A model generated the notes under the pieces. That model worked only from the letters and a program-made list of their open reading frames with translations. It ran no database searches and was not told the DNA's origin. A stretch of 64,000 nt of DNA from Pelagomonas calceolata. Taxonomy: Eukaryota. Made by a program: the position numbers and the translations under genes. This document shows, piece by piece, positions 1,334 through 64,000 of this stretch. The stretch lies in contig CAKKNE010000001.1 in assembly GCA_918797485.1 (NCBI GenBank), forward strand, positions 6,014,001-6,078,000, read 5' to 3'. The stretch's first letter is position 1. Each line of letters opens with the position of its first letter.

Positions 1334-3659
1334 TCACACGTCCAAGATGCTCCGCACGCATCCCTTCGACTCAAAGTCCGCGCTGTCCGCGAGCGACGCC
1401 GCCCCGGAGAGGTGGACGCAGGCGTGTTCGATCGCCGCGAGCGCGCCCATTCTCGCGAGAGCGGCTTCGTCGCTACAACTCTTCTGCACGGCCCCGTCGT
1501 AGTAGGCGTCCCACGCGTCTGCCAGATTCGTGGAGAGTTCCGCGCGGAAGTCCTCGAACGCGGCGAGTGCAGCGGAGAGCCGGTCGTCTGAGTTGAAATG
1601 GATAGCTTCCGCCGCCGCGGTCGCGCGGTCCGCGAAGCCCTTCGTCGCTCGTGCGAACATCGGCTGCAGCGAATCGTCTCGCGCGACGCCGGCGAGGCAC
1701 CGCGCGAGGGCGCCGAGCGAGTGCGTCGTGTCGGCCAGCGCGTCGACGAGGAGCCCCAGGGACTCGGCGTCTAAGGGCGCCTGGCACGGCGGCTCGCGGC
1801 GCGCGTCGGCGAGGCGCGCGCGGGCTGATGCCAGCGTGGCCTCGAGCCCGGCGACGCCCTTGTTCGTCGCCGCGAGCGCGTCCTCCGATCCGTCAGAGGC
1901 GGCGTCCGCGGCGCTGGACGCGGTCGCGCCGAAGCCGTCGAACCACGAAACCAGCGTGGTCCTGAGCGCAGGCCGCGCCGACCGCCGGAAGAACAGGAAG
2001 TCGAAGACGAACGACTGCAGGATGCCGATGCTGACCATGGTCACACGGAGCGAGACGAATGTCAAGTTCGTGGCGTCGATGCCGAAATCTACCAAACCTC
2101 CAAACAAGAACATCGGCGCCGAGAACGCCGCGCACTCCTGTAGATAGGCCATCGTCGGTTCGAACCACACCAGACAAAGGAAGATCCAGGCGCTCACGAG
2201 GGCCGCCGCCCAGATGAGGTGGTCGACGCTCAGCACGAGCGCAATCGTCATCGCCGCCGCGCCGGCCGACGCATTGCCAAACAGTCGCTGGAACATCTTG
2301 GTAAACGTCGCGCCCAGGGACTCCTGCACGACGCACATGACGCTGATCCCGACCCATGAACCATACCCGTCGGCGCGCCGCTGCCACGACGGCACGGCGA
2401 CCCAGAGCGACGCAAAGGCCATGTGGAGGGCGACGCGGACGGGAAATTCGAGGTGCCGGAGCCACGACACCTTCGGCGACGCCTTCGGAGGAGGCGCGGG
2501 CGCCGCTTCTGGATCGAGCTCGTGGTCGGCGACGCGCATGAGCGCTCCCGCGGCCGTCGCCAACGGCAGCCAGACGTCGTGCGAGTCGTCGTCCGAGATC
2601 TCGCGGCGCGCGCCGCCGACCGCGTCCTCCGCCGTCTTGCGCGCCGCCTTGAGGCGGACTGGATCGTCACCTTCGATCGTCACCGCGATGGCTTCAGCCA
2701 GCTCCCGGAAGGACCCGTGCAACGTCTCGACGCTCGCCGTCTTGGCCACGGCGCGCGGGGGCATGCGAGCGGCCGCGTCGAAGAGCGAGCGGAGCAGCTT
2801 GCCGCGGGCCTCGAGGTGGCCGACGCGCGCGCGTAATGATTTGGCCGAGCGGCCCACGAGGGCGAGCTCGACCGCCGCCGGCGTACAATACGGGACGGCG
2901 CTGTCGTCCGCGCGCGTCTTCAGGAGCCGCCGGCCCGTCGCGACGGCCTCGAGCTGCTGCGTGCGCGTCGCGCCGAACCCGACGGCGTCGCTCGCGAGGC
3001 GCGCGAGCTTGGCGTCGGCGTCGTTTTGGTCGTCGATGCGGTCTTGCGCCTTCCACACCGCCAGCGACGGCCACGGCACGAGCTTCGACGCCACACCGAA
3101 AGCTATTCCCACAGACGCCGTTCCGAAGACTTTCCACGCATACATCGGGTCCGCTCCTGCGCAATCAACCAGTGAGTTTTAGATGCGCCGCGACAATTTG
3201 ATTTATGCACTGGTTGGCGCCGCGCCGCGCCCCCGAAGCGCCCATGAAGAGGACCAACACCGCGCTCGGGACGAAGGCCCGCGGAATCACGGGTACGAGC
3301 CCGAGCGCGAACGAGCAGACGAACATGGTCAACGGCAGCGCCACGTCGAAGTGCTTGCGGGAGATCTGGTCCTGCCCGCGCAGGAAGATGATGACGCCGT
3401 AGGACAGGGGGGTTGCGATGCCCAGCGAGATTCCCATGACGGCGCCGAGGAGCAACCATGCGCCGAGGGAGTTCGCGTCGCGGCTGAGAACGATGATCGA
3501 CACGGCGAGGAAGCCGACCGGTAGGTTGTCCGGGACGTTGTGGCGCCCTCCGATGCCGGCGTTCAGCCACCAGAGCGCGAACCAACTCGCGACGGCGCAT
3601 CGCAGGGCCGTGATGGCGTTTTCCCGCGCGACGCGCGGCCAGCGCGCGGTCGCTTTCAT
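1334..3659 (-). CDS. FUSC/aromatic acid exporter/ALMT-like multi-pass membrane protein; exons 3659-3221, 3156-1334
   Basis: Two hydrophobic ORFs are joined in frame by a GC-AG intron at 3157-3220. Motifs WVGISVMCVVQESLGATFTKMFQRLFGN and RVTMVSIGI match the FUSC/ALMT fold. Confidence 0.7.
3157..3220 (-). mobile_element. Decayed Introner-derived intron (64 nt, GC-AG)
   Basis: Decayed TIRs ctgcgcaatcaaccagtg...gatttatgcactg (3157-3212) plus an 8-nt TSD remnant (gttggcgc vs gtccgctc). Removal fuses two ORFs in frame. Confidence 0.7.
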
Positions 3660-3992
3660 GCTTTATCTTTTGCTGTCGCGGGTCGTCTCAAATTTACCGT
3701 CGGTAAGGAATACAATATTGTGGGAAACTTGGGCTTGCGTGCCGAGACGTCGTACGCGTCGTCTTTGGCGCACTGCGGCGCACTAATAATATACGTCTAC
3801 GTACTTGCGCGCTTACGGGCTCGAGGCAAGCCCGCCGAGCGTGTGGTGTCTTTTTATACATATACATATGTATAGCATAGGTATACTAAATACCTACTAA
3901 ATCCGAGGTCTACTGAGGAATCCCCCGACGCCGACTACGCATGCATCTGACGGATCGCACCGACAACCCGCACGCGAGCAGAAATGAGACCT

Positions 3993-4016
3993 GCTAGCGG
4001 CCTGTAAGACACTAGC
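3993..4016 (+). promoter_or_regulatory. Dispersed upstream motif GCTAGCGGCCTGTAAGACACTAGC (copy 1)
   Basis: Intergenic, between divergent genes. Related copies at 12604, 13904, 34631, 39548, 44990, 46142, 48361 and 60337. Confidence 0.6.
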
Positions 4017-4584: not shown

Positions 4585-4644
4585 GTTCGCGCGCCCCTCT
4601 GTATAAATCCTACCTAAGTGGCCTTAAAACGTCGCTGCGCCACA

Positions 4645-11466: not shown

Positions 11467-11508
11467 GGATGCGTGTTGTATGAAATATTGCGTGGGCCTT
11501 CGTGAGCC

Positions 11509-11563
11509 TCCACGCCATCGAGGCGACGCGGCCACGGAGACAACGTCGCGTCGATGGCTTGGA
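11509..11563. repeat. Orphan hairpin built from the Introner internal motif, between convergent genes
   Basis: tccacgccatcgaggcgacg (11509-11528) and cgtcgcgtcgatggcttgga (11544-11563) are an 18/20 inverted repeat. Confidence 0.75.
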
Positions 11564-11579: not shown

Positions 11580-12452
11580 TTATCGCGCATTCTCTGCCTC
11601 GATCATCTCGGCGATCGCGCCAAAAAAACCGAAGCCGCCGTCGTCCGCGTCGGGCGTCGCGTCCTTGACGCCCGCCGAAACGACGTCATGGACAAGGTCG
11701 AGGAGCGCCGGCGCTTCGCCCAGCGGCGGCGTCAGCGAGTACGGAATATTGTGCCGACTCGCCGCCTCGTCCAGCAGCGCCGGCACGTCCTCCCGGACGT
11801 GCCGCCCCTGCGACAAAAAGAAGGGGTGGCACACGATCGTGGAGCAGCCCGCCTCCACCAACGCGTCGAAGGCCTCGCCTATCGACGGCGACGCGAGCTC
11901 CATGTGCGCCGGCCGCACGATCCAGTGCTTCGGCGCCCGCGTCGTCGCGTAGCCCTCGCAGAGCCTCTCCAGCCGCTCGTTCGCCGCCGCGACCTTGGAG
12001 CCGTGGTCCACGATGATTATTCCCACGGAAGCGGGCGCCGCCTCGTACGCGTGCGGCGACACGCGCGGGTCGAAGTCCAGGCCGTCCATTGGTTGATCGG
12101 CCGCGGCCTCGAAGGCCGAGCCGTCGAGCGCCACGCCCTCCGATCCGATCAGCGCCGCGAGCGGGTCGAACGGGACCTCGTCAGTTGTGGCGGCGGCCGG
12201 GTCGCTTGGTGTCTCGTCCTCCGCCGGCGGCGGCGTCCGCGGCGCCTTCAGCGCTTCGGCCACCTGGGCCTTCTCGGTCATGCCCGACACGTCGATGCCG
12301 CGCGCGGCCGCGAGCGTCTTGAGGTCGTTGAGGCTGAATGCAGCGAGATCGTCGTTGGTGCCGCGGCGCAGCGACGGCGTGCGCGGTCGCAGTTTCGGGT
12401 GAAACGCGAGCGCTGCGGCTAGGAGTGCTGGGAACAGCGTGCGGAAGGGCAT
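11580..12452 (-). CDS. Sirohydrochlorin ferrochelatase (SirB/CbiX family), plastid-targeted
   Basis: IIVDHGS, AHMELASPSI, HPFFLSQGRHVREDVP. Signal peptide ends ALA-FHP. Confidence 0.9.
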   Translation of the reverse strand: MPFRTLFPALLAAALAFHPKLRPRTPSLRRGTNDDLAAFSLNDLKTLAAARGIDVSGMTEKAQVAEALKAPRTPPPAEDETPSDPAAATTDEVPFDPLAALIGSEGVALDGSAFEAAADQPMDGLDFDPRVSPHAYEAAPASVGIIIVDHGSKVAAANERLERLCEGYATTRAPKHWIVRPAHMELASPSIGEAFDALVEAGCSTIVCHPFFLSQGRHVREDVPALLDEAASRHNIPYSLTPPLGEAPALLDLVHDVVSAGVKDATPDADDGGFGFFGAIAEMIEAENAR

Positions 12453-12603
12453 GGCTGCTCAGAGGTGGCACTGTGTTTCACTCCTTCCGGAGAGTTATGG
12501 GTGCTTCTTCGCAAAGATCTGTTCAAGTAGACCGAGTAGCGCTGCTTGAACGTTGCGAGCTCGCCCTGTTGTCGGCCGTGCGCGTGCGCTGAAGTCTGGA
12601 TTA

Positions 12604-12626
12604 GCTAGCGGTATGTAAGACACTAG
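12604..12626 (+). promoter_or_regulatory. Dispersed upstream CTAG motif (copy 2)
   Basis: gctagcggtatgtaagacactag, between divergent genes. Confidence 0.55.
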
Positions 12627-12872
12627 AAAGCGCGGCGCAGGCTCTGCAGCCTAAACAGGGCCGCGGCAGGCAACCGAGCGCCGGAGAAATCACGAAAAGC
12701 AAGCGACAGCATCGCTGCGTCGTTGTGCTGAGGCACCGCGCCAGCCGAGCAGCAGAGAGCACGATCTCCAGCACCATCTCTGCAGCAGCCCGGTCAGGCC
12801 GCAGCAGCAGTCGTCGTGAATACTCAAGCGTGGTCGCATCGATCGTCAGCGCACCACAGAAACCGTAAGGCA

Positions 12873-13880
12873 ATGCCCATCTTCGCCAAGATCCAGGGCA
12901 AGACCCTCTACGCCGACAACGACGACGACGAAGAGTTGCCGGCTGTGTGGAAATCAAAATTTTACGGCGCGTTCGTGCTGAATCATCGCGTCGTCCTCCA
13001 CGCCATCGACGCGACGCCTGCTCGATGGCGTGGTGATGCCGGTTCCTCACCGCTCGACCGAGCCAGGACGGCCGCGTCATCGCCGAGAAATGAACGCACC
13101 CGACGCACTGGTTGATTTCCACACAGGTTGCCAGACATAAACTTGGATATCACGCACACGAAGGTGTTCCTGGGGCGGGCGGACGCGTACCCCGCCGACG
13201 AGTCCCTCGGCCCCCACATGGGCACGTGCCACAGCAAATCTGTCAGCAGACGGCACCTGACGATCAGCTGGGATCCAGATAGGGACCAATGGCAGCTTTA
13301 TGTCGACTCGAAGAATGGTGTGGTGGTGGACACCAAGTTCTGGGAAAAGGGGAAGACGGTCGACCTTTTTCACAAGTCGGCGATCAAGTTCGGCCCCTGC
13401 GCGTGCTACTTCGTCCTGCCCGGCGGCGAGGGCGAGCCCGTCATTGCCGCTTCTACCGTGGCGGCGCCCCCGCCGCCGCCGCCACCGCCGCCCGTCGCCG
13501 TGCCGCCGCCGCTGTTCGTCCCGCCGCCGCCCGAGCCGACGTCCGTCGTCGTGCAGTCGGGCGGCGAGACAAAGCCCGCCGGCCCGACCTACGCGGAGCT
13601 CGTGGCCCTGGCCTTCGCGGCGCCGGAGCTCGGCCGGCCGGAGGGCGTCGAGACGAAGGAGATCCGGGAATGGATCCTGGGCTCAGTACCCGAATGGGGG
13701 AACGCGACGGCGGCGCAGAAGAAGCTCCTCGCCGGCGGCATCCAGGGCGTATTGAGTAGAGGCGCGGAGTACGTCAAGGCCGAGAGCGCGGGCCGGAAAA
13801 ACCGGTGGCTGCGGCAGAACGTCGTCCCGCCGCCTCCTCCGCCGCCGCCGCCGCCGCCTGATAGTCAGACGCAAGGGTAA
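12873..13880 (+). CDS. FHA-domain protein with C-terminal forkhead/winged-helix-like region; exons 12873-12934, 13127-13880
   Basis: FLGR...VSRRHLTI...SKNGVVVD (FHA) and PTYAELVALAF...KEIREWI. Splicing gives DDDEE-LPDINL in frame. Confidence 0.8.
12935..13126 (+). mobile_element. Near-intact Introner element (12943-13126) plus TSD = 192-nt GT-AG intron
   Basis: Perfect 15-bp TIRs. TSD gttgccgg (12935-42) / gttgccag (13127-34). Frame restored. Confidence 0.92.
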
Positions 13881-13903
13881 ATTATTGTGAAGTTCATCAC
13901 GCA

Positions 13904-13925
13904 GCTAGCGTTGTGAGGCACTAGC
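13904..13925 (+). promoter_or_regulatory. Dispersed upstream CTAG motif (copy 3, diverged)
   Basis: gctagcgttgtgaggcactagc, 65 bp before the ATG at 13990. Confidence 0.5.
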
Positions 13926-13989
13926 AAGAGTCTGAGATTTTCGGGGTTTTGAGCGGGGTTAATCGCTGCCATAGTTGCAACAATCGGCA

Positions 13990-15293
13990 ATGGGGCGCCT
14001 CACCATTGTCGTCGCGCTCGTCGCGGTGCTAGTCGGCTACTTGATTGGCACCTCGCCCGCTGGTGTCACACCTCCCACGACGCCGCCGGGCAGTCCCACG
14101 GCACTGCTCCCGCCGTGGCCCATATTCCGCGTCGCCATCGCGCTGAACGAGTTCTTCGAGGCGGCAGCCGTGGCCACGCGCCCGCCGCCGGTCCAGGTGA
14201 AGACCCTCGCGACCGCGTACTGGCAGTCAGAGATTTCGTACTCGCTCACCAAGAGTGGTGCCATCGACGAGGTCGGTGCGGAGGGCGGCGTCGCCTGCGA
14301 GGACGTGGCTGCGAAGCTCAAGCTCGTCCCGGACTTTCTCTGCCGGATGATGCGCGCGGGCACGTTGTCTGTGTCTTCTCGGTCCTGTCCACGCCGTTGA
14401 CGCGCGGCCGACAATCACTCGTCGGGGTCCACACAGGCGAGGGCATCAAGCTCCTGAGCACGGACGCGCAGGGCAAGTACTCGCTCACGCCCGCGGGCGA
14501 CATGCTGCGCTCGGAGCATCCCGGGAGCCTCCGCTCATTTATGTTGATGATCAACGAGGAGACCACGAAGGCGTGGAGGGCGGCCGGCACGAAGAGCCTC
14601 TCGTCGGGCCAATCAGGCTTCAAGGAGGCCTTCGGCAAGGAGTGGTGGGCGTGGCACAACGAGCCGAGCCGCGCGACGCAGATGCGCCAATTCGACGCCG
14701 CCATGCGCAGCCTGAACGCCGACGTCTCCGGAGCGCTCCTCGTCGACTGGGCGCCACCCAAGGAGGACGCCCTTGTCTGCGACATCGGCGGCGGCGCCGG
14801 CCACATGACGGCCGCGATGGTGAAGCACTACCCGAAGCTCAAAGGGATCGTCTTCGACCAGCCTAAGGTCGTCGCGAGCAGCACAAAGGAGGTGCTCGCG
14901 GAACTAGGGGTCTCCGACCGCGTGTCGACGGTCGGCGGCAGCTTCCTCGAGCCGCTGCCCGCCGCGCTGTCCAGCTGCGACGCCTTCTACCTCAAGTTCA
15001 TCCTCCACGACTGGGCCGACGAGGAGTGCGTCTCGATCCTCTCGGCGATCAAGGCGGTGGCCAAGGAGGGCTCTCGGATCGTCACGACCGACTTCATCCT
15101 CGGCGTCGACGGCGCCAACATGGAGATGTCGAAGCGCATGATGGACATCAACATGATGGCCGCCAACCCGCCGGGAGCGGGCGAGCGCACCTGGGAGGAG
15201 TACGCAGCGCTCTTCGCCCGGGCGGGCTTCGCGAAGCCCTCTCAGCTCGTCAAGATGCGCGACCTCGTCTCGACGGTCGTCACAGAGGTCTGA
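13990..15293 (+). CDS. O-methyltransferase (Methyltransf_2) with N-terminal signal/anchor; exons 13990-14359, 14437-15293
   Basis: CDIGGGAGH, VFDQP, GGSF, YLKFILHDWADEE, GERTWEEY. The dimerisation region is completed only after removing 14360-14436. Confidence 0.88.
14360..14436 (+). mobile_element. Decayed Introner-derived intron (77 nt, GC-AG)
   Basis: ctgtgt at 14369, internal tccacgccgttgacgcg, ends tccacacag. The donor could alternatively be the GC at 14354 (same phase). Confidence 0.7.
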
Positions 15294-15374
15294 TGGGGCT
15301 GGGCCCGCCTTCGTGCGGCCGCATACCCTCGCTAGTCGATACCCCCACCCCGTCTTCAATTAATATATACGATT

Positions 15375-17759
15375 TTAACTCAGCATGCCCTGTACGTGCG
15401 CGTACGCGTCGGCCTCGTCGTCGGCCACGGGCGGCGCGCCGTTCATCGACCCCGGCTCGGCGTCCGGGTAGTGGGGCTTGGCCTCGCGGCCCCAGGCCTC
15501 CTTGTGGCCGTCCTGGGCGTTGCTGCCCCAGGGCGCCGTCGCGCCCGTGGGCTTCGCCGGGCGGCCCCAGTTCTGCTTGTGGCCGTCCTGCGCGTTCACG
15601 CCCCACGGCGCCGAGGGGCCGCTCTGGTCATCATACAAATAGCCGTCGAGCGGCGCTTCATTTCTGGAATGAGGATCCAGGAGCGCGGCGAAGTCCTCCT
15701 CGCAGTGGTCGAAGCGCAGGTGCTGGAACACCAAGTTGTCCAGGCCCATGTTCGCCGGGTGCGCCGCATCAATAACCGCTTCATTGGTGGGCGTGTCCCC
15801 GGCCGCCGGCGTGCGCATCTTGTCCTTGAAGAAGGTACTGTAGCGGTAGTGGCCCGCGCAGCACTCTTCGGACGGCTGGTCCTTCGAGGAAGACACCAAG
15901 CACTCGCCCGTCGCCGGCAGGCACGAGCCCTCGCCGTGGTCGGCGCGCGCCCAGTCATCCACATAAGTCGCCGGCTCCTGGAGCGCCATGATGCGCTTCA
16001 TCTGGTAGTATCTAGCTAAAGAGGGGTGCACGATGAAGAACGACGGGTCCGTCGTGCCCGAGGCCTCGAGGTGCTCGCCCTTGATGAACGTCGTCGAGCA
16101 GATGGCCCGCCCCACGCGTTTGAGGGAAGCCGAGGACGCTTGGTCCGCATAGGTTACGGAAGAGTCGCCGCCCTGGACGTTCCAGCACGCGTAGTGGTCC
16201 ACGGCCCACGCTCCGATCTTTTCGAGTTGCTCGTCGTCGTCCGGCAGGTCCTTGCACGTGAGCTGGCAGTTCAGGACACCGTCGGAATGGGGATCGTCAC
16301 ACTGGTCCGGGAAGTCGCTCAGGTACATGCGCCACATGTGCCTTTCACTGACCGTCTGGTAGCAGGAAGTATATCCTTCCACATTAACCGACTCAAAGGC
16401 GTCCAACAAGTTTTGCGTGCTATCGACGTCGAAGATCGTCCCCCCTAAACACTGGTGGATGTTCGCGTGGACCGTCATATCTTCCAGATGCGTCATGAAG
16501 GCCACGGCCGTCGTCGCCGGCTGGATGAAGTCATATAAGTCCGAGCACGTCGGCCAGGACTTCGCCGGCGACAGGCCCGCATCCACAGCATCCTTGACGT
16601 ACGCGAAGTTGACCCTTGTAACATACGGCGACGGGTTGTTGTTCCACGGGGATCGCAGGAAGCCGTAACTGTTGCGGGGGTACATGTCCCGGTCCGGATC
16701 CGTGTCCTTGAATTTCCGGACCTTGGCGAAGGCCCAGCGGCCGTCCTGGATCGCCCAGTTCTCGAAGCCCTTGTCGAAGAATTCTGTTGTAGACAACCCG
16801 TAGTGCGGGCCGACGACGACCGGATCCTCAGCATAATTCAAACTCCCGAACCACTCGGCCGTCCAGAGCGGCGACTCGAAGGGCGACTCGAGCTCGCCGC
16901 CGTCGACCATGGCCATCTCGATCGTCCAGTCCCAGTAGGGCGTCGACACGCGCGGGTCGATCGACTGCACGCTCTCGAGGACCATCGTGTCCAGGCGCAA
17001 ATGCTGGGCCAGGAACCCGGCGCCGTTGTGAAAGTGGTCGTTGTCCCTCAGAGCGCTGTTCGTGCCGTGCAACGCCAGTAATTCGTTGGAAGATATATAT
17101 TTCGACGAGTACTTCCGCCTCCCGTCCACGCCTTCGATCTCCCACATCTTCACCAAGGCATCCAAATATCTGTTCCTATCTTCTTGCGTCAGGTCGCGGA
17201 TTTCTCTCCTGACATATCTTACGAGGAGCTTGCCCTCGGAGTAGCCCTCGACGTAGCCCTGGGCGTCCATGGCCGTGCCTTTCACTACAAAGTCGCCGAC
17301 TTCTTGAATTTCATGCGATACACCATTACCATACTTGGTAATGGTAGAACCGTCGGCGGCGGTCAGAGTCCAGACGACCGTGCCCGACGTGTGGCCATCT
17401 AAATATAATTGGAAGGGCCGCCAGGCGTCGATGATTTGCGTGTCTTGAGAGGTCCACGCGTAGTCCGCCCCAATCACGCCTAAAGTCTCCACATAGTCGT
17501 TCGTCGCGCGCCACTGGAGCGTCTCCCTGTTAATCTGCGCGGCGTAGTTCGTCGCCGGTTTTGTGGACGGGGCGAGGCGCACGGCCGCGAAGCCCAGCAA
17601 GCTCGCGACGGCGACGCCGATGGCCACGCGGTCGCAGGTCCTCGGCTTCCGTCGCTTGGGCCGGGCCGCCTCGCCGCCGTAGATGACGCCGGTCTCCTCT
17701 ACTAATAAAGTTGTCTCGTCGTCGCTGTCGCTTGTGTTGTCCGCCGCGAAGGGGTTCAT
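15375..17759 (-). CDS. Tyrosinase (type-3 copper) domain protein with N-terminal membrane anchor
   Basis: YVRREIRDLT, HFHNGAGFLAQH, PYWDWT, HANIHQCLGG, DPSFFIVHP. C-terminal duplicated PWGxNAQDGHKxxWGRxAKP. Confidence 0.85.
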   Translation of the reverse strand: MNPFAADNTSDSDDETTLLVEETGVIYGGEAARPKRRKPRTCDRVAIGVAVASLLGFAAVRLAPSTKPATNYAAQINRETLQWRATNDYVETLGVIGADYAWTSQDTQIIDAWRPFQLYLDGHTSGTVVWTLTAADGSTITKYGNGVSHEIQEVGDFVVKGTAMDAQGYVEGYSEGKLLVRYVRREIRDLTQEDRNRYLDALVKMWEIEGVDGRRKYSSKYISSNELLALHGTNSALRDNDHFHNGAGFLAQHLRLDTMVLESVQSIDPRVSTPYWDWTIEMAMVDGGELESPFESPLWTAEWFGSLNYAEDPVVVGPHYGLSTTEFFDKGFENWAIQDGRWAFAKVRKFKDTDPDRDMYPRNSYGFLRSPWNNNPSPYVTRVNFAYVKDAVDAGLSPAKSWPTCSDLYDFIQPATTAVAFMTHLEDMTVHANIHQCLGGTIFDVDSTQNLLDAFESVNVEGYTSCYQTVSERHMWRMYLSDFPDQCDDPHSDGVLNCQLTCKDLPDDDEQLEKIGAWAVDHYACWNVQGGDSSVTYADQASSASLKRVGRAICSTTFIKGEHLEASGTTDPSFFIVHPSLARYYQMKRIMALQEPATYVDDWARADHGEGSCLPATGECLVSSSKDQPSEECCAGHYRYSTFFKDKMRTPAAGDTPTNEAVIDAAHPANMGLDNLVFQHLRFDHCEEDFAALLDPHSRNEAPLDGYLYDDQSGPSAPWGVNAQDGHKQNWGRPAKPTGATAPWGSNAQDGHKEAWGREAKPHYPDAEPGSMNGAPPVADDEADAYAHVQGMLS

Positions 17760-18334
17760 GGCTGCTTGCGTGCGCGCGCGCGCGCGGTCGCTCTTCGTCG
17801 CCCGAGGCTGCCCCTGGCACCGCGTGAGGGTGGATAGAGGCTGCGCTTGGCTCTTCCTTGCCTTTGCGCTGCGATGGGCAGCACAATATCGAGCCTGGCC
17901 GAGCCGAGGTCTCGCCTCGAAGCGCCAGTGTTTACCTTTTTCTTACTAGCCTACGCCGGCGCTTCGGCGGCGTGAAGGGCTCATTATCCGGGGGTCGAGC
18001 GGTGGCAGGGCTGCCGATGCGCCAGTGGCTGGGGTTTTGCGAGCCCCAACATCTCGCCCTCCTCCCAGTCCTCCTCCGAAATATACAGCGCAGATGTCCC
18101 GACGGCGGCTTGAACACCTCCTTCGTACGCTTCTACCCTTCGCCGCGCCGGACAGAAAACCCGCGAGTTAGATATCAGATCGGCCAAAAGAGCCACCAAA
18201 GTCTCACAGTGCGCGCGCTGAGTACCCAAGAGTCGGTTGCGAGTTGCTGAGGAGCCGTTTTAACGAGTGCACACCGATCACGGCTTCAGAAAGGGTTTAG
18301 GCGGCACACAGCGCAGGTGCTCTCCGGTGGCAAA

Positions 18335-18589
18335 ATGCCGAAGAGCCTCCTCGACATCCTCGTGCCCCCGTCGGCGTGCGTGCGCGGCGGCAAGCTAACA
18401 ATTCCAGCGTTTGAGCACCTCATGGGTGGAATAATGTGCGGCCTCGCCGCCTACCTGACGCACACCGTCTCCCCAAAATTTGTCTACATGTCCTTCTTCG
18501 TCTCGTTCATGCTGGTGCAGTGCGCCGTCACTGGTTTCTCGCCGCCGCGCTTGATGGGCACCTACGTGCTCGGACTGAAGCGGGACTAA
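18335..18589 (+). CDS. Small membrane protein, DUF2892/YgaP-like
   Basis: Two hydrophobic helices and VQCAVTGFSP. The 5' end may extend through an acceptor-like gcgcag at 18311-18316. Confidence 0.6.
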   Translation: MPKSLLDILVPPSACVRGGKLTIPAFEHLMGGIMCGLAAYLTHTVSPKFVYMSFFVSFMLVQCAVTGFSPPRLMGTYVLGLKRD

Positions 18590-19282
18590 ATGGCGTTCGA
18601 CGAGTCGCGGCTGCGGGCGCTCGTGCGGGGCGACAGCTGCGTCCTCCGGCCGCAGACGTATTTTGTCGCGTGGAACGGCGTGCTGACGCTTGTCTACGAG
18701 GGCTTTCCGCCCGTGTTGGCCGGCATCAAAGCCAGGCTCAACGAGGAAGACGCTCTGCCCCCGGAGAACTTCGGCTCGCGGTGGCCGAAGACGACGCTGG
18801 CGGCGCTGCAGGACGACGCCCCTCCGCTCTCGTTGGCGGAATTGACGCGCCTGCGGGCGCTGTGCGAGGAGCACGCCTCGAAGCTGAGCCTGCGCGTGCC
18901 TGTCGAGCGCCTGAGCTTCGTGTCGTACGACCAGCGCGGGCTCGAATCGGTCCGCGAGCGCAGCGATGTGGCCCTCGGGTCGGCCGTCGATGACGGCGAG
19001 CCGTCGGATGCGGAGCAAGCACGCGTCCGCGGCGTGCTGGACGAGTGGTCGGATTTGGAGACTTATCTCCCGCGCGTCAACGCGCCGGGCTCCCGCATCG
19101 GCTCGTACCGCGAGTCTTCACCCGCCGGACAGACGCTCGTGGCGTTTATCGGAGGCTCAGAGCTTCGGGAGCTCGTTGCGCAATTCCGCTCGGCGGTCGA
19201 CGCGCTGCTGCCCGGCCGCTACGCGTGGCTCGACGACGCGTCGCTGCACTGCACCGTCCGAGCGCTCGGCGTATCTACGTAA
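18590..19282 (+). CDS. 2H-phosphoesterase-like hypothetical protein
   Basis: Paired motifs WPKTTL and LHCTV. The ATG directly follows the upstream TAA. Confidence 0.6.
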   Translation: MAFDESRLRALVRGDSCVLRPQTYFVAWNGVLTLVYEGFPPVLAGIKARLNEEDALPPENFGSRWPKTTLAALQDDAPPLSLAELTRLRALCEEHASKLSLRVPVERLSFVSYDQRGLESVRERSDVALGSAVDDGEPSDAEQARVRGVLDEWSDLETYLPRVNAPGSRIGSYRESSPAGQTLVAFIGGSELRELVAQFRSAVDALLPGRYAWLDDASLHCTVRALGVST

Positions 19283-19310
19283 CCACGAAATCAATTTACA
19301 CAAAGCGGAG

Positions 19311-20404
19311 CTAGTCGCTCGGCATGCTGTCCTCCGGGTCCCCTTCCATGTCGGGAGAGACCATATACCTGTCCTCGTCTACCACCTCCGGAGACGGCGG
19401 GGCCGGCGCCGCCACACGCGTAAACACGCGGAGCTCGCCCCGCAGCGGGTTGCCGCCGCGCGAGATTCTGAGAGTCTCGTCGCAATAGGTAGTATCGAAC
19501 GCCGAGCCGTCCAGGCCCGTCGCCGCGAAGGCGGCGTTGGCTGCTCTCGCAATCTCAGGGACGTCGTAGCCCGTCTCTTCTGGTCTGTGTGCAAATCGCA
19601 AATCAACCAGTGTTGCTGACTGAATCGAGCGGTGAGAGATGCACACCGCCACGCCATCGAGCAGACGTCGCCTCCGTGAAAGTTGATTTATACACTGCTT
19701 GTGGCAAGAGCTCCGCGAATTCCGGCGCTTTGTCTCGGTCGAGGCCGGTGAGCGTCCTGTCTAGACCTGGAAATCGACCAGTGAGTTAGGTTGTGGGGCA
19801 CCCGAAATTTGATTCCACGCAGGTCTAAACGTTCGAACACAATATTCACCCGGTTCGTGCCGGCGGCTTTCCTTGTGCCGGGCGTCGAGCCGTCGCCGTC
19901 CACCGAGAAGCTGTGGTCCAGGCTCAGCGCGACCGACGCCTTCGACAGGGCCGCCAGGGGCGCTCCGATGAGCGGCAGGCCGTCGAGGCCGTCGAGCACG
20001 GCCGAGGGCCACGGCGCCACGGTCACGCAGTTCTTGACGCGGCGGCCCATCACATCAATTTTCTGGACGACGTCGCGGCCCGCCAAACCGGACGTGTCGA
20101 ACGGCACCCAGTCCGGCGGCGGCGGCGGCGCGTTGTTCGTGAATCTCAAATCCCAGTCCCCGTCGATGACCATGAGGTCCCGCGGGAACGACGGCTTCTC
20201 GTCGTCGGTCGCGGCCTTCTCGAGCGCGGCGACCGCCTCCTCGATGCGCTTCGCGCCGTCCGGCGGCGCGCTGAAGCGGTCGCTCGGCACGACGTCCGCG
20301 AGGACTTGTAGGAGGTTGGTCCGGGCCGACGCGCTGGGACGCGCCGTCATCGCGGAGAGCGCCGTGGCGGCGCCACTGCTCAGCAGCGCAATGAGGATGC
20401 GCAT
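19311..20404 (-). CDS. Plastid lipid-associated protein/fibrillin; exons 20404-19831, 19766-19706, 19584-19311
   Basis: IDGDWDLRFTN and FDTTYCDETLRISRG...GELRVFTR fall in one frame after removing two element introns. Confidence 0.85.
19585..19705 (-). mobile_element. Introner-derived intron (121 nt, GC-AG)
   Basis: ctgtgtgcaaatc...gatttatacactg. TSD cttctggt / cttgtggc (6/8). Frame restored. Confidence 0.85.
19767..19830 (-). mobile_element. Introner-derived intron (64 nt, GT-AG)
   Basis: ctggaaatcgaccagtg...gattccacgcag. TSD gtctagac / gtctaaac (7/8). Frame restored. Confidence 0.87.
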
Positions 20405-20804
20405 GCTTGCGATTTGTGAGCTGTGTGCGATGTGCTGTAATTACACAACCTGAGAGCCAAGTTCACAGTTCGCTTTGAGGCGTTCGCTTGAAGAGCCTCT
20501 TGAAGACCACGCTGAAGCGTACGATCGTCGTGCTGCTCGCTTAGTGATGCGCCTCGACCTTTGCGCTCGTGTGGGCATTAATAGCGTCACAGAGTCACTA
20601 GCATTCGACTTTGGCGCACGAGTCCTAGCCACGTAACACATACGCTCTCCGGTGCAGGATGAGTGGTGCGAAGGCTACGGCGGCAACTCGCATCCTCACG
20701 AGGACAATCGTTGAGCGCAGCGCATTTGGAGGCTCCTAGACGACAAAACGGAACAGCGGGCAGCCACGACAACACGCCTACCAACAATGCACACCTAGGG
20801 CACC

Positions 20805-22575
20805 ATGCTGAAAGCCTGGGACACGCTCGTGGGCGAGGCGCGCTGCCTCTTTACCGCATCGGTGGAGGGCGGTGAGCCGGAGGCGCTCTGCGAGGGGTTA
20901 GTAAGGCAGGTGTCCAAACTCGCGGTAGGAGCCGGCGGCCCGGGCACGACCTGCCGCGCGGCGCCGACGGACTACGGCAGTATCATCGTACAAGTGGACA
21001 CGCGCGACGGGAGCACCGAGGCGATTAAGGACGCGTTGAAGGGCAAGACGCTCATCGTGCGCGGCGCGCGCTGCGTCTTGGGATTGGCGGCGGCGGCCGT
21101 CAGGCTGCCATGTGCATCAAATCCTGTTGAAATCCGCCCCGTGGTCGAGAAGCCCCACGGAAGTATGATAAAAGACGTCTCGGAGGACGACTGGCGGCGG
21201 CTCCGGCGCCTCTTCGGGCGCCGGGCGGAAGTGCCGGGCGACAAGCGCGACGCCTGGGCGCGTGCTTTGAGAGATGCGGGCCGGGCCTACGCGGACCGGC
21301 CGTGGGCTGAGTGTCGCTGGCACCCGCCGAGGCGCGAGCCGCTCGTCGTCACCGGCCCGTCGTTCTTCGCCGCGCCCAAGAAGCAAGAGGCCAAGGAGGC
21401 GGACTCCAAGGCCGACGCGAAGGACGCGAAGGATTCTGACGACGACGCCAAGGACGACGTCGCGGAAGCCAAGGGCGCCGAGCCCTGGGACGAGCGCGCT
21501 GCGACCCGCCGCGCGACGCTGCGGCGGCGGCGGCTGATGGACAACCGGCAGCCGTGGCGCCTCGACCCCCGCGCGCCCGTCGACGAAAAGGCGCCCGTAG
21601 TCGTCGACGAGAACGTGCCGCCCGCGACGGCGCCGCCGGAGCCGGCGCCTCTCCCACAACCCAAGGTCTCGTCGGTCTTCGCCGCGATGCGCGCCGTCGC
21701 GGCGCTGACGCCGAAGAACGCCGCGGCGCCGGACGTGCCGACGGTCGCGGCGCGGCTCGCCGCGCGGCGCCGTTCCTCCCTGTGTGGAAACCAAATTTCG
21801 GGTGCCCCACGCCATCGACGCGATGTTGTCCCCGTGGATAACTAACTCACTGGTTGATTTCCACACAGGCGAGAAGGGCTTCACCCTGTCGAAGCGCGGC
21901 GAACTGGCCGTGCTCGACGAGCTCGCGCGGGCGATGCCGCAGGGCGGTCTCGAGCTGGCCGAGCCGGCGTGCTGGGGCGCCGCGGCGTCGAACGCCGTCG
22001 TCGCGCGCGGCCGGGGCGCCGCGGCGCGGCTCCGGTGGCTGGCCCTCGCGCGGCGCGCCGTCGCGGCGTCGTGGTGCTTCCTGAGCTTCGAGGAGTTTGT
22101 GCAGTCGCACGCCGACGCCGTCGAAGGGCGGAGGCGCGCGCTGCGGGAGGCGCCGATTTCCGTCGCGCAACCCACGGCCGCCGAGCCTACGATCGTCGAC
22201 GCCGTCAATCTGGCGGTCCTACCGATTTCGCGGGCCGCGGCGCCGCGGCCGCTCCCCGACGGGACGTTTACCTGGACGACGCCCGAGGAGGATGAGTCGG
22301 TACCGGTCGTCGACGAGGCCCCGCCGCGTGCCGACGTTTCTGCCGAAGGCAAGGCGCTGTCAAATTTGGAGGGCGTCTTTCCCGTGGTCGTCGCGGCCAT
22401 TCCGCAGATCGTGTCGGTCCACGTCGTTGGGAGCAGCGAAGAGGACGTCTGGCGCGTCGTCCGCTCGGCTCTCCCGGACCGAAGCAAGACGTGCCTCGGC
22501 CGGGAGGAGTTCGTGGGGGATGTGTGGCCGGCGTTGTGGGGGGCGTTTGGGGAGCGCTGGCGTTCTAAGCTATAG
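20805..22575 (+). CDS. Hypothetical protein; exons 20805-21771, 21869-22575
   Basis: Two long ORFs join in frame on removing the element at 21772-21868. Confidence 0.65.
21772..21868 (+). mobile_element. Introner-derived intron (97 nt, GT-AG)
   Basis: TIRs ctgtgtggaaacc (21780) and gatttccacacag (21868). GT lies exactly 8 nt before the TIR; the TSD is not conserved. Confidence 0.82.
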
Positions 22576-22712
22576 TTGTGTTTACATATCACGTAAGTTA
22601 GACTTGGGGGGCGCGGGTAGGCGCGCGGGGGTGGTGGCCTCGCGCGGGCCGCACCCGTGCCAGTGATAGGGAATAACACAAGTGCAGCTTATAACTCGAC
22701 TTCGCAGAGCGA

Positions 22713-24206
22713 CTACTTCCGCGACTTCTTCTTCTTCGACGCCGGCTTGCGCGCCGGCTCCGCAGCCTTGCGCTTCTTCGCGGCCGGCTTGCGCGCGGCC
22801 GGCTTGCGCGCGGCCGGCTTGCGCGTGTCGATCTCGAGGTGGCCCCGGCGGTAGCCCCGAGTGTCGGTCTCGCCGCCGAGCTGCACGTGGTACCACGAGC
22901 CGCTGCCCGTGGTGCGCTGCACGACGCCGCGCGCGCCCGTCTCCTTGATGACGACGCGCGTCCCGACCTTGACGGGCGGTAGAGCCGCCCGCTCCGCCGC
23001 CTTCGCCTCCCACTCTCTCATCTTCCTCCGTTCGTCCGCCATGCGCGCCTCCTCCTTCTTCTCGAACGCCGCGCGCGCCTCCTCGAGCGTTGGGCCCAAG
23101 TCGTTGCACACGCGTCGACCCCGCAGCGAGGACGCGTAGCGGAGGGCCTCCCGGTCCTCCAGGACCGTCGCCTCGGCCGCCGCGCGCCGCCCCATGGCGA
23201 GGAGCGTCTTGTCCTCGGCGGACGCGCCAGGCCGCTGCGCGTAGGCGAGCCGCACGCCTATGACGTCCTCGTACAGAGTCGACGTCGCAGCCTCGCCCAT
23301 CTTGTACAACGCGTCCGCGTACACGTCGAAGGCCGCGCGCTCGCCCTTGTTGTCCTCGGGGCACGGCGGCTTGCGCCGCTTGCCGTCGTCCGGCCCGCCG
23401 TTGGCGTGCTCGACCCTCACTAACTTCCGGCGCCGCCCGCAGTCGATGCAGTCAGCGACCTTGTGCGGGAACCACTCATTTACCTTCTTCGTCTTGGCGT
23501 CGGCGCCCTTCGGCATGTCCTCGCCGCGCAGGAAGGCCTCCGTGACCAGTTCGTCCTTCACGAGTGAGGCGTACTGCGCCTCGTGCGACAGGTCCTCCTT
23601 CGGCAGGCCCAGGTCCCCCAGCCGGTCAAACGTGGCGTCCTCGGAGCGCTTGTCGTTCTCCTCCTGCGCCGCTTTCTGAAACCGCTGCTGCGCCAGCGCC
23701 TCCGAGTTGCACATGCCCGGGAAGCCGGGCTTGTGCCAGGGCCCGACGACGAGGCCGTGGTCGAGGAACCACTTTTTGGCGGACGCCTGTCCAACACTCT
23801 GCACCCACCCTCCGGAGAAGAACGCGTAGCCGTGGAGCCTCACGATCTCGTTGAGTTGAGGTTTGGTCAAGTTCTTGAGATACTGCTCGACCTCGTCGGG
23901 CTTCGAGGCCGTCCAGCCGGGCGGCAGCCTCACTTTCTTCGCCCTGGCGTCGTGCTTGTAAACTGGGGCGTCCGCGCGCTTGCTGGAGATGCCCGCGGCC
24001 TCGGCCGCCTTCTTTTCCTGCTTGACGAATTCCTCCCCTGTAATCGCACCGGGCTGGGCGGAGTCGTCGTCGTCCGATTCGGACTCTGCCGCCCCGTAGG
24101 CTATGTGGCTCGGAGCGCGCTCCGTATTATATTGCTCCTCGTCGGCGAAGCGCAGCGGCGCTTTGGGCGCGCGCGCGGGCCACGCGTTGGCGCCGGTCCG
24201 ACGCAT
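22713..24206 (-). CDS. Hypothetical, probably nuclear protein with KOW/Tudor-like domain and KPAAR repeats
   Basis: Long ORF; VKVGTRVVIKETGARGVV...WYHVQL and a basic tail KPAARKPAARKPAAKKRK. Confidence 0.7.
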   Translation of the reverse strand: MRRTGANAWPARAPKAPLRFADEEQYNTERAPSHIAYGAAESESDDDDSAQPGAITGEEFVKQEKKAAEAAGISSKRADAPVYKHDARAKKVRLPPGWTASKPDEVEQYLKNLTKPQLNEIVRLHGYAFFSGGWVQSVGQASAKKWFLDHGLVVGPWHKPGFPGMCNSEALAQQRFQKAAQEENDKRSEDATFDRLGDLGLPKEDLSHEAQYASLVKDELVTEAFLRGEDMPKGADAKTKKVNEWFPHKVADCIDCGRRRKLVRVEHANGGPDDGKRRKPPCPEDNKGERAAFDVYADALYKMGEAATSTLYEDVIGVRLAYAQRPGASAEDKTLLAMGRRAAAEATVLEDREALRYASSLRGRRVCNDLGPTLEEARAAFEKKEEARMADERRKMREWEAKAAERAALPPVKVGTRVVIKETGARGVVQRTTGSGSWYHVQLGGETDTRGYRRGHLEIDTRKPAARKPAARKPAAKKRKAAEPARKPASKKKKSRK

Positions 24207-25155
24207 GATGATGAGTGCTCGATCTACGTTCGGCACGCGTGTGGCAACCACTGCACAGCGCGGGATCGGCTGAAACGCGGCGTCTGCGGCACCACTCGTA
24301 GCGCGGTTGCAGCAGCGGTCAATTGAGGTATTGATGGAGCGCTGCCAACGCGCGGTTAACTTACTGAGGCTCCTCTCGCGCCGTGCACAGCGACGCAAAA
24401 CCAGGCTCGGCGGAGCCCCAGCCTTTGAATTTATTTTGCTTGGAGCGATCCATCAAGCGGTCTGCGGGCTCATAGTCACTGGCTGATGGATGGGCAAGCG
24501 CGTGGGCGTCGCACCACGCAATCTTCTCTGAAATTGCCTGCGGACAGCTTGGCAAAAACGAGCCCGCCGCGCGCGCGTGCGCGCTGGTCGGCGAGCACGA
24601 TGCTCTGCCCGGGCACGATACCACGACGCGGCGCCAGCGCCACGATGCGCGGGCAGCAGCTCGCCCATGGCGCCTGGATGTGGGCTGCCCCAGCTCCTGG
24701 CGCCCCAGTCGAGGGTCCCGGAGCCGCGTACTGGGGCAGGGAAAGACGACGAAGTCGCGTGCGGGCCACGGCGTCACGGGCTTGTGTCGGGCGCAGCCGA
24801 CGGAGGCTACTCGCCGCCGCGCGGGCGAGGACGGCGCGCCGATAGCATCGGCGCCGCGGCTTGATTTGGACAGTCAGGCCGCGATCATTGTTGTTTGTTT
24901 GTTATGGTTACGTAAACGACCGCTCGTGCGAGTTCGGGCGCGCACGCATGGGGAGAAGAGTTAGAAACAAATCAGGTTTGGACGGGTTTTTGGCGCATTT
25001 TTAGCGCGCGCGATTCTGCGTTTACGCTCGCAACAGCGCTTGGCGGTGAAGCGGTACCCTCCAGCGATCTCCTGGTTCGCACACGTATCGTGCCCGTGAC
25101 CTATTATAGATCTGTGGCCCAGAGAGCCACTTTGCTAATTTGAAAGCACAAGCCC

Positions 25156-26028
25156 ATGCCGCGCCCGGCGAAGCGCGGCCGCGCGGACGCCGACAAGGAG
25201 TTCCGGGTGGATCCCACCGAGGAGGACGAGGACGAGGAGGAGGAGGAGCCCGTCGCCGACGACGACGACGACGAGGAGGCGCTGCGGAAGAAGCAGCGGG
25301 AAGTGGACGCGAAGAACGGTTTCGCCCTGTGGGGCGACGTGCAGCGCGACAAGGCGAAGAGCCCGAAAGGACCGCTGGCCTTCCTGCAAGGCAACAACAC
25401 GCTGGGCGACTGGACGCCGGAGAGCCGCTCGCTGCCCAAGGAGATCGTCAACGCCTACCACGAGATTGGCCACCCCATCAAACGCTGCACGACGTCGCGC
25501 GGATACGTGCGGGCGCTCATGAAGATTTGTGTAGAGTGCAACGTGCCGTTCCCGAAGCCCGGCAAGGGCTACACGACCCGCACGTGGATAGCGATGCTGC
25601 TGATCTGGTGCGCGCCGATGAGAAAGGGCGGCCGCCGGCGCTTACAGCTGGAGAGGGCGGCGTTCTTCAGCTACCAGCTGCTGAAAGTCTCCGAGAAGGC
25701 CGCGTTGGCGTTGGCGCCGCCCAAGCCCGGCGCGTGCGAACTTTGCTCGACGACGGCCATCAAGCAGCTCTTCAAGCACTTCCCCGGCGCCGACGAAATC
25801 ATCTGGGGCGACTACTTCAAGGTGACGCGCGTGGGCGACACCTTCCACATCACGGTCCTCAAGAAGAAGACGCTCCACCGCGACCACCTGGAGCTCTCGC
25901 TCCTCTTCCGCGGCTGGCTCTGCGTGCACTGCAACCGGTACACGCTCCACAAGCTCGACTCGCTCTCGAGCGACGACTACAAGGTGTTCGGGCGCCGCGT
26001 CTACGTGAACTGCACGACGTTTATCTGA
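25156..26028 (+). CDS. Endonuclease-VII-like (His-Me finger) protein
   Basis: CELC ... LHRDH ... FRGWLCVHCN resembles the CxxC...DH...RGxLCxxCN signature. Confidence 0.6.
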   Translation: MPRPAKRGRADADKEFRVDPTEEDEDEEEEEPVADDDDDEEALRKKQREVDAKNGFALWGDVQRDKAKSPKGPLAFLQGNNTLGDWTPESRSLPKEIVNAYHEIGHPIKRCTTSRGYVRALMKICVECNVPFPKPGKGYTTRTWIAMLLIWCAPMRKGGRRRLQLERAAFFSYQLLKVSEKAALALAPPKPGACELCSTTAIKQLFKHFPGADEIIWGDYFKVTRVGDTFHITVLKKKTLHRDHLELSLLFRGWLCVHCNRYTLHKLDSLSSDDYKVFGRRVYVNCTTFI

Positions 26029-26090
26029 AGCCTAATTCTAGTTAACTCGGCATAGGCATCCCCGGGGAGGAACGATGACCACGCCTCCCA

Positions 26091-55277: not shown

Positions 55278-55288
55278 GACAATACTCC

Positions 55289-56653: not shown

Positions 56654-57040
56654 CGTCTCAGATGTGGTCTGCGGTCATCCAGCGATCGATACTGCTACTG
56701 GTGCGTCCGGTCGCCGCGCGGCACAGCAGTCGCCCCACTCTGGTCTGGGGACAGTGCTCCTCGGCAGGTGTTGGGCTGCCGCCGCGGCGTTGGCGTATGG
56801 GGCAGACGGTCCGAGGCGTGCGCTGGAGAGCACAGGAAACGCTGTGCGGGCGTATACGCCGCGATTTGCGCTTCGCGTCGCGTCTAGACCCGCACGTTCC
56901 CAAAAATCGGTTGCCGGCCGTGCGAATTCAGGGCCGTACGCATCACAGAGGGGGCCACGCGCACACAGCACGCCGCTACGATACGTCATTTGTCCCGGGG
57001 CAGCCTGCACCCAGCGATAGGCACGCCATCGACGCGCATC

Positions 57041-62183: not shown

Positions 62184-62204
62184 TGTCGTTAGTCCTAGGC
62201 CCCG

Positions 62205-64000
62205 TCAGTCCGTCGGCTCGCCGAGGGGTGGGAGCCGCCCCGCCTTCGCGAGGTCGATGATCTCCTTCATGCCCTTGACGGCCTGCTTCAAATTCGGCCA
62301 CGCGGGCCCGTACGACATGCGGAGCCTGTACGGAAATCGAGCCTAAGTCAAGCCGTGGACGCATTATTCGAGACGCGGTGCTCCGCTTGTCAATATACGG
62401 CGACTTGTGGAAGCGGCGGCGGTGGAAGGGATTCACGTCGAAGAATATGCCTGGCACGCAGATGACCTTGTGTCGGACACAATACTCGAAGAACACCACG
62501 CAGTTGTTCAGCGGCGGCGGCAACGCCTGTGCGGAGAGACTCGTGTCGGCCTCCACGCCATCGAGCAGACGCAGTACGCTACCGAGACGTCCGCCCAGAT
62601 GTAAAAGGTGCTCTTCGGCACGCGCGCCTTGATGCCCATCGCCTCGAGCTCCCGTACCATGTAGTCGCGCTTCTCGCGGAAGTGCGCCTGCAGCGCTAGC
62701 GCGTCCTTTTCCACAAATCCAGGCTCGAGCAAGGGAACCGCGGCCTTTTGCAGCGGGTTGTTCGTGCCGCCGTCCATGAAGGAGCCGATGCTTCCCAACA
62801 CATCAATGCAGTGCTTCGGTCCCACCACCCAGCAGCAACGCCAACCCCTGCGGGAAGATCGCGTCGATGGCGCGGAGCGTGCAAACGGAAAGACGGACGC
62901 GGGAGGCGAGCGGCAACCGCCAATTTTTCGTGAAGCCGTTCACAATACATATAGGGTCCTTGTTGACATCTTCTACGAACTCCGCCGACGAGAGCGTGTG
63001 GAAGGGTCGGCCACTCGATGAGTCCTGCTCGTACATGTAGTGGGAATAAAATTCGTCCATGAGCATCATCGTGTTCTCCTGGCGCGCGATCTCGACGTAT
63101 TGCCGTAGAGTGTCTCCCTCAATCGGCTCGCCCGTGGGGTTCGCCGGGTTGCTCCAGAGAAACGCCCCTAATCCATGCAGTTGGATCTGGCGGCGTAAAT
63201 GCTCGGGCGACGTTCGCAAGCCGTCCTGGTCGTGGGCGATGGCGATCGGCGCCACTCCTGTGAACTCGCCGAGCAGTTGCTGGTACGCCGTGTAGTCCGG
63301 GAGAAAGTAGCCGACGTTGACGTTGTGGAGCGACGCCATCAAACGAGAGAGTCCCGCGCGGCCGCCTGGAACGATGGCCACGTTGGCCGCCGTATATTGC
63401 GACTTCTTGCCCTGGCGGAACCAGTGGTTGTAGTACTGGGCGACGGCGTCGCGGAGGTCGCGGCGCCCGTTGACGTCTCCATACTCATTCGTCTCGTCGT
63501 CGAGCTCGACGGCCAGAGAACGCTCCGGGCCGCCGATGGGCCCCGTCTCCGGCGCGCCCTGGCCGAGGTTGCCCCACGCGGGGTCGCCGGCGCCCTTGAA
63601 TCCCCAGCGCTTGGCCCGCGTCGTCGCCTGTGTGGAAATCAAAACTTCGCGGTGCGTGCTGAGTCGTCACGTCGACCTCCACGCCATTGACGCGTCGCCT
63701 GCTCGATGGCGTGGCGATGCCGGTTCCTTATTCGACGGTTTCAGAGCGGCGGCGTCATCGCCGAGAAGTGACTTAGTGAAGAATTATCGGGTGCACCCGA
63801 CACACTGGTTGATTTCCACACAGGTCGTCGCGTAGATGACGCCCGTGCGGCTCTGCATGGACATGATCTCCTCGCAGTCCGACATGGATTCCTGGACTTC
63901 CTGCCTGTGTGGACGTCGCGTCGATGGCGTCCATCTGTATTTGATTTCCGCACAGCCTCCTGCGTGGCGAGCACGGCGAGCAAGCCCTGGAGCTGATCCT
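62205..64000 (-). CDS. Class I/II PLP-dependent aminotransferase (5' partial); 5 element-derived introns
   Basis: Spliced product reads TGVIY-ATTRA, NLGQGAPE, SNPANPTG, DEFYSHY, GFTKNWRLP-GWR, FYIWADVS-ALP, PGIFFD, K-LRMSYGP; stop TGA at 62207-62205. Confidence 0.9.
62326..62386 (-). mobile_element. Decayed Introner-derived intron (61 nt, GC-AG) with inverted flanks
   Basis: ctgtacggaaatc end. Flanks gcggagc (62319-25) / gctccgc (62380-86) are reverse complements. Restores YIDK-LRMSYG. Confidence 0.8.
62527..62582 (-). mobile_element. Decayed Introner-derived intron (56 nt, GT-AG)
   Basis: ctgtgcgga...cctccacgccatcgagcagacgcag plus 8 nt to the GT. Phase-0 join. Confidence 0.82.
62848..62911 (-). 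mobile_element. Decayed Introner-derived intron (64 nt, GC-AG)
   Basis: ctgcgggaagatcgcgtcgatggcg. Removal restores the PLP motif TKNWRLPGWR. Confidence 0.82.
63628..63831 (-). mobile_element. Intact Introner element (63628-63823) plus TSD = 204-nt GC-AG intron
   Basis: Perfect TIRs and perfect TSD gtcgtcgc (63620-27, 63824-31). Confidence 0.95.
63905..63963 (-). mobile_element. Short Introner-derived intron (59 nt, GC-AG)
   Basis: ctgtgtgga...gatttccgcacag. TSD cttcctgc / cctcctgc (7/8). Frame restored. Confidence 0.88.

Follow-up and report, generated by a model that had tools for sequence, protein, structure and literature searches.

Spliced inverted-repeat elements as a probable source of coding introns in a gene-dense stretch of the Pelagomonas calceolata genome

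Where do the introns of a compact algal genome come from? The question is raised by a gene-dense, 65% GC stretch of 64,000 nt in the pelagophyte Pelagomonas calceolata (contig CAKKNE010000001.1, positions 6,014,001 to 6,078,000; hereafter the window), in which 18 predicted coding introns of 56 to 208 nt resemble one another and end in the same way. We are highly confident that these inserts are short repeats bounded by terminal inverted repeats (TIRs) and spliced without scar, likely originating from a non-autonomous, probably hAT-derived DNA transposon. It is plausible that this family supplied nearly all coding introns in the window, 20 of whose 64 kb (12,300-32,299, holding 11 of the 18 copies) were compared with RNA.

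The TIR, CTGTGTGGAAATCAA, and its complement match the window 17 times at up to two mismatches, against 0.01 matches expected, and the matches are arranged as convergent pairs spaced 89 to 200 nt apart, which bears out the 15-bp inverted pairs described in an earlier note on this DNA. Degenerate copies were found by self-search of the window, which together with direct reading of the sequence gave 18 candidates; copies are named here by element start, and intron coordinates comprise the element plus the upstream copy of the target site duplication (TSD). The earlier note had presented the copies as TIR-bounded, and its count and range were reproduced, but only eight of the 18 retain both TIRs at 13/15 or better, five of them perfectly. 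Its frame-preserving reading holds throughout: on the host sense strand the splice ends are GT..CAG in 11 introns and GC..CAG in seven, and removal of each joins the host reading frame. The acceptor is the CAG within the TIR and the donor is co-opted from the TSD, so that each element carries one splice site and borrows the other. As claimed, the donor GT or GC opens the upstream TSD copy (position -8) wherever the left TIR is recognisable, except at 30209, where it lies at -9. Direct TSDs match at 8/8 in four copies, 7/8 in three, 6/8 in two, 5/8 in two and at most 4/8 in seven. The seven duplications named in that note are as described (perfect at 28070, 29862, 31509 and 63628; 7/8 at 12943, 19767 and 63905), but 8-bp direct flanks do not extend to the seven copies at 4/8 or less, and at 30209 the flanks are inverted. 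Both orientations occur, a subterminal CACTGG motif standing at the acceptor end in six copies and at the donor end in five, with seven not assignable. Being short, non-coding, bounded by TIRs and TSDs and hairpin-forming (fold z -3.75), the elements have the hallmarks of miniature inverted-repeat transposable elements (MITEs).

Splicing at the predicted ends was examined in the raw reads of two poly(A) runs from a single sample (X21 and X22) and in two contig sets presumed to be of RNA origin (X5 and X7). Five family introns are present among the 15 joints listed (of 110), all on the expected strand, with 19 to 62 reads per joint in X21 and 9 to 45 in X22. The young copy at 12943 (element 12943-13126, both TIRs 15/15, TSD 7/8) forms a 192-nt GT..AG intron in an FHA-domain gene (12935-13126, +), whose joint 12934>13127 is spanned by 28 and 22 reads in the two runs and by two contigs. 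A degenerate copy in an O-methyltransferase gene (14360-14436, +; GC..AG, TSD 3/8) is skipped over 77 nt by 19 and 10 reads and two contigs, which settles a boundary that the earlier note had called ambiguous. On the minus strand, a 121-nt GC..AG intron (19585-19705; TIRs 12/12, TSD 6/8) is removed at joint 19584>19706 in 55 and 39 reads, and a 64-nt GT..AG intron (19767-19830; palindromic TSD, 7/8) in 62 and 45. The fifth, a young copy in an SNF2-family gene (element 28070-28269; intron 28070-28277, -, GT..AG, TSD 8/8), is supported by a 208-nt skip in 19 and 9 reads and by two contigs. The other joints among the 15 represent reads of one copy mapping to another or, in a multi-copy region, skips whose ends are not splice sites. 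Hundreds of reads join element ends to foreign flanks (in X21, two such flanks account for 1,126 and 504 reads), indicating that the family is multi-copy elsewhere in the genome and that some copies stay in poly(A) RNA.

A single contig, X5 record 5, bears on five further introns, all GT..AG and on the minus strand. Its pieces end at 28060, 30354 and 31500, and the 1,565 nt between two of them correspond to 1,939 nt of genome; the shortfall of 374 nt equals 102+115+157, assuming no other indels. These lengths correspond to three introns of the SNF2 gene: the one at 28616-28717 (102 nt, TSD 6/8), a degenerate copy at 28924-29038 (115 nt, TSD gone), the second boundary formerly held to be ambiguous and now fixed by this arithmetic, and a young copy at 29862-30018 (157 nt, TSD 8/8) that lies within the SNF2 motif DEMG|LGKT. 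The contig supports these three jointly with the 146-nt intron at 30209-30354, at whose end a piece stops, and supports from one side a young copy with an internal deletion (31509-31621, 113 nt, TSD 8/8), the frame of which is also preserved. In total, five of the 18 introns are spliced at their predicted ends in raw reads, five more are supported by this one contig and eight are without RNA support. The copy at 21780 gives no joint among the 15 listed despite lying inside the RNA-compared stretch, where upstream read depth is only ~3-4; its predicted 97-nt GT..AG intron (21772-21868, +; TIRs 14/15 and 15/15, direct TSD 1/8, flanks inverted over 7/11) leaves 558 codons with one terminal stop. 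Outside that stretch, a degenerate copy in a FUSC-domain gene (3157-3220, -; TSD 5/8) would form a 64-nt GC..AG intron whose removal gives a joined open reading frame (ORF) of 753 amino acids, and the one match to this gene in a homolog search does not reach across the junction. Among proteins of the window encoded by single ORFs, 14 of the 16 looked up exist whole, in keeping with the idea that the family makes up nearly all coding introns.

If the introns were gained by insertion, relatives may be expected to carry empty sites. A metagenome scan with one exon of the aminotransferase gene, which holds five minus-strand copies, yielded two loci from 128 candidate stretches. The first, L070 (1.1 kb), has exons 90-97% identical to the window and lacks the inserts of the young copy 63628 (element 63628-63823; intron 63628-63831, 204 nt, GC..AG, TSD 8/8) and of 63905 (63905-63963, 59 nt, GC..AG, TSD 7/8), with a single TSD copy at each site and, at the former, a 28/28 nt match across the junction. 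The second, L071, lies on a 30-kb contig with the same neighbouring genes at ~80% identity, and lacks 62848 (62848-62911, 64 nt, GC..AG, family core, TSD 1/8), 62527 (62527-62582, 56 nt, GT..AG, family core, TSD 2/8) and 62326 (62326-62386, 61 nt, GC..AG, TSD 5/8), the last a weak member of the family; its 5' part is non-homologous, so 63628 and 63905 could not be tested there. The check proposed in the earlier note thus found five of five sites empty, with the footprint of a single TSD at the two youngest. The joined aminotransferase also aligns to four homologs (61-69%) with no gap at the five intron positions. A degenerate copy in the COG6 gene forms a 132-nt GT..AG intron that is stop-free and in frame (35358-35489, +; TSD 4/8), and of 15 homologous proteins examined, 13 run through the 35366 junction with no insert and two begin inside the intron frame, indicating that those sources either splice this intron or lack it, and that some close relatives possess it. 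For the window as a whole, the 65% GC, a Parmales stramenopile as source of the closest named homolog (63%) and matches in marine metatranscriptomes are compatible with a Pelagomonas host.

The two metagenomic loci have some features of their own. L070 carries two introns with family-like sequence, one of which (494-555) occupies a site where the window has no insert. Although they interrupt the aminotransferase gene at different positions in the two lineages, the introns at 62549-62582 in the window and L070:493-526 are 94% identical over 34 nt that include the donor region GTAGCGT, a hint of a subfamily that may carry its own donor. L071 (1-140 and 2900-3250) likewise has a family-like element (score 49), and in its aminotransferase copy the 5' part is not homologous and there are apparent frameshifts.

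Over aligned bases, identity among the five young copies, which lie in three unrelated genes, is 86-98%, internal deletions being the main difference between them. Multi-copy, sequence-similar introns at non-homologous gene positions are one mark of introners. Interior similarity to these five links the rest, 17 of the 18 copies outscoring all 300 shuffles. The other, 62326, is not distinguishable by its interior (235 of 300 shuffles score as well) and is assigned by its right TIR (12/15). Five copies (3157, 14360, 19767, 62848 and 28924) score 29-35, a preliminary boundary having been used for 3157; this range starts just below the 99th percentile (30) for 756 background windows, so interior similarity by itself is marginal evidence for them. 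Across all 18, both TSD match (Spearman 0.72, p=7e-4) and intron length (Spearman 0.65, p=3e-3) fall with TIR decay, which fits an old-to-recent series and, with the empty sites, supports the recent-to-old wave of intron gain that had been proposed. The family core was also found without TIRs at 11499-11563, between convergent genes, and at 57022-57036, just upstream of a start codon; these matches were not counted as introns and are perhaps remnants in untranslated regions.

In the mechanism that we propose, a transposase presumably encoded elsewhere would move the non-autonomous element by cut and paste, and insertion would duplicate 8 bp, as the TSDs and empty sites suggest. If the duplicated bases read GT or GC at their sense-strand start, the donor comes from the TSD copy upstream of the element and the acceptor from the terminal CAG of the TIR, whichever the orientation, and splicing takes out the element plus one TSD copy, as is seen in the reads. 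Insertions without a usable donor would be purged, and older copies would shorten and lose TIR and TSD similarity while remaining introns. Affiliation with the hAT superfamily is likely but not established, and is argued from sequence features. The 8-bp TSD typical of hAT elements is found perfect in four copies and at 7/8 in three, and position 7 of the TSD is A in 7 of the 11 copies whose TSD is recognisable (8 of 18 overall), where the background frequency is 0.145 (p=2.6e-4, post hoc). This agrees with the hAT target patterns NTNTANAN/NTRNNYAN listed in PMC3014272. The hAT MITEs treated there likewise have 8-bp TSDs with A enriched at position 7 and short TIRs, but the young termini here are CTGTG and break the hAT motif YARNG.

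Candidates for a mobiliser, or for copies in other organisms, were considered and set aside. The Endonuclease VII-like gene at 25156-26027 was rejected as mobiliser: its Pfam score of 23.3 bits falls below the cut-off, a search of the Protein Data Bank (PDB) gave nothing at E < 0.1, and the family TIR does not occur close by; atlas matches (0.81-0.82) are leads only. This plus-strand gene is highly expressed and apparently multi-copy, its Endonuclease VII-like C-terminus is weak, and an adjoining non-coding segment of ~430 bp occurs twice, ~7.3 kb apart (26091-26521 and 33422-33849, 82-88% identical); the region is possibly another mobile element. TIR matches in viral contigs (53, all single, none resembling the element interior) were attributed to chance. 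Prokaryote genomes scanned for the TIR gave 16 loci, of which a single one, L058, represents a true element end; this exact end (L058:2639-2673) sits at the tip of a 2.7-kb contig in a bacterial metagenome-assembled genome (MAG) and is probably a eukaryotic (algal) contaminant. One Prevotellaceae MAG has several TIR-pattern matches (L055, L056, L059, L060, L063, L068 and L069), including an inverted pair ~3.8 kb apart, that show no similarity to the element interior and were rejected as family copies, probably belonging to an unrelated bacterial mobile element.

Several observations weigh against this account. Direct TSDs are missing from seven copies (14360, 21780, 28924, 30209, 35366, 62527 and 62848), interior similarity is marginal or absent in six, and the introns at 3157 and 21780 are predictions from reading frame. 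Each empty site is represented by a single contig, L070 is so short that it may derive from partly spliced RNA, and a relative without an insert could have lost the intron. Pfam searches of 37 of the 169 window ORFs found no autonomous element or transposase, and the YARNG mismatch of the young termini sits uneasily with a hAT origin. A possible but somewhat doubtful alternative is that the young copies are true introners while 62326, 14360, 3157, 28924 and 62848 are unrelated or stem from other introner families, and look alike through a GC-rich hairpin and a CAG end. These short degenerate introns score 16-35 against the background 99th percentile of 30, and eleven introner families are listed for P. 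calceolata (PMC12130899); yet four of the five outscore all 300 shuffles, they retain the family core, the subterminal motif or an 11-12/15 right TIR in register with the acceptor, and the two that were tested are absent from L071.

That the intron positions are ancestral, transposons having entered or replaced old introns with none gained, is extremely improbable and largely refuted. Absence in one relative cannot by itself tell gain from loss, but the element is the whole intron except one TSD copy, the second copy is coding sequence, both young sites show just one TSD copy in L070, and L071 lacks all three older inserts. Spread through RNA, by reverse splicing or intron retrotransposition instead of cut-and-paste DNA transposition, is very unlikely too. 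It would accord with no transposase having been found among the ORFs searched and with all 18 copies lying in sense-spliceable positions. But the donor lies outside the element, varies between sites and is identical to the target sequence, and copies stand in both orientations. The combination of TIRs with a duplication of 8 bp is, moreover, what a DDE transposase leaves behind. Derivation from a non-autonomous DNA transposon is the reading that we adopt.

The mechanism is of a known kind, as the earlier note had recognised from its match in geometry to the introners of the pelagophyte Aureococcus, and introners of this geometry are also described from P. calceolata. Introners were described in Aureococcus anophagefferens by Huff et al. 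2016 (as cited in 10.1101/2020.10.14.339549, PMC9481584, PMC10228655 and PMC11282704), and have been reported from Pelagomonas, Pelagococcus and Aureococcus MAGs (PMC9860276). Compared by description, not by TIR sequence, the A. anophagefferens elements agree with those of the window in carrying one splice site and taking the other from the TSD, in both orientations and at ~210 nt. In P. calceolata, 956 putative introner elements with GT or GC donors, AG acceptors and conserved TIRs were reported in a genome with 0.45 introns per gene and an intron length peak of 210 nt (Guerin et al. 2022, PMC9481584). Gozashti et al. 2025 (PMC12130899) distinguish 11 introner families in this species, of which fam2 (340 copies of ~202 bp, TIR DNA/hAT; gt 281, gc 42) is annotated as 'co-opt 5', carry 3''. 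The window family shares the ~210-nt peak (young introns 192-208 nt), GT/GC donors, AG acceptor and TIRs with these elements; the likeness to fam2 is one of description, the supplement rows giving no TSD length. The published elements differ in making up ~15% of introns, whereas decayed copies appear to account for most introns here. Outside the pelagophytes, introner-like element (ILE) classes 6, 8 and 10 of Polarella glacialis also have an 8-nt TSD starting with GH that gives the donor, and occur in both orientations (10.1101/2020.10.14.339549), but they belong to a dinoflagellate and allow GA donors, and are again likened by description. The TIR string was not found in the available supplements of PMC9860276 and PMC12130899 or in other relevant literature searched, its one occurrence being in a paper on an unrelated subject. 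Whether the family had been described before, which the earlier note could not tell, can now be answered with a probable yes, TIR introners with GT/GC donors having been reported in P. calceolata; the window family is very probably an introner of known kind already catalogued in this species, and its identity in sequence with a published family is likely. The system thus repeats published pelagophyte findings, and its value is that of a clean series of ages, checked against RNA, in which young copies of 208 nt grade into remnants of 56 nt and wild relatives show empty sites. Beyond that, interest attaches to the decayed copies, the CAGTG termini and the inverted flanks.

Two small leads are new: at two copies the flanks are inverted where direct ones would be expected, and three older ones begin with a hAT-like CAGTG. 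The donor-side end is CAGTG in 3157, 19585 and 30209, and in one L070 intron, and may represent the ancestral terminus; as a counterpoint, the subterminal repeat itself contains CAGTG and recurrent mutation is possible. Among the eight copies with both TIRs at 13/15 or better, six have a direct TSD of at least 6/8 and in the other two the flanks extend the inverted repeat, over 10/11 positions at 30209, where comparison with random flank pairs gives p=5e-5 per site, and over 7/11 at 21780 (p=0.017). Copy 19767 is likewise inverted at 7/11, which its palindromic TSD accounts for. In the predicted fold of 30209 the donor region pairs with the next exon. We infer from general knowledge that a template switch across the hairpin could have replaced the upstream TSD copy, 30209 being the one strong case; a limited literature search on template switching at TSDs in introns found nothing relevant. 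A joint reading, tentative and on balance unlikely, is that nearly all introns in the ordinary gene-rich DNA of this alga (against ~15% published) are decayed copies of one hAT-MITE lineage, which turned introner by a CAGTG to CTGTG change, and that hairpin-driven template switching turns some direct TSDs into inverted flanks (30209, perhaps 21780), erasing the footprint. The terminal change would create the CAG acceptor at the opposite end, so an autonomous element would be expected to have CAGTG ends. If so, introner counts in compact algal genomes would be large underestimates, and the origin of introners from an ordinary transposon, a question raised in PMC12130899, would be traceable to one terminal base.

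Two further observations concern the SNF2-family gene. An in-frame TAG at 29509-29511 (-) is codon 954 of its otherwise open, joined ORF of 1,759 codons, between helicase motifs I and Ia. The contig arithmetic leaves no room for a further intron, so the TAG would be a null allele, an assembly error or a site of readthrough, and no RNA difference occurs there among the differences listed. The SNF2 gene, ending at 26666, and a gene ending at 22713 have in common similar 3' flanks and lysine/alanine-rich repeats (about 22600-22840 and 26635-27320), suggesting a local duplication.

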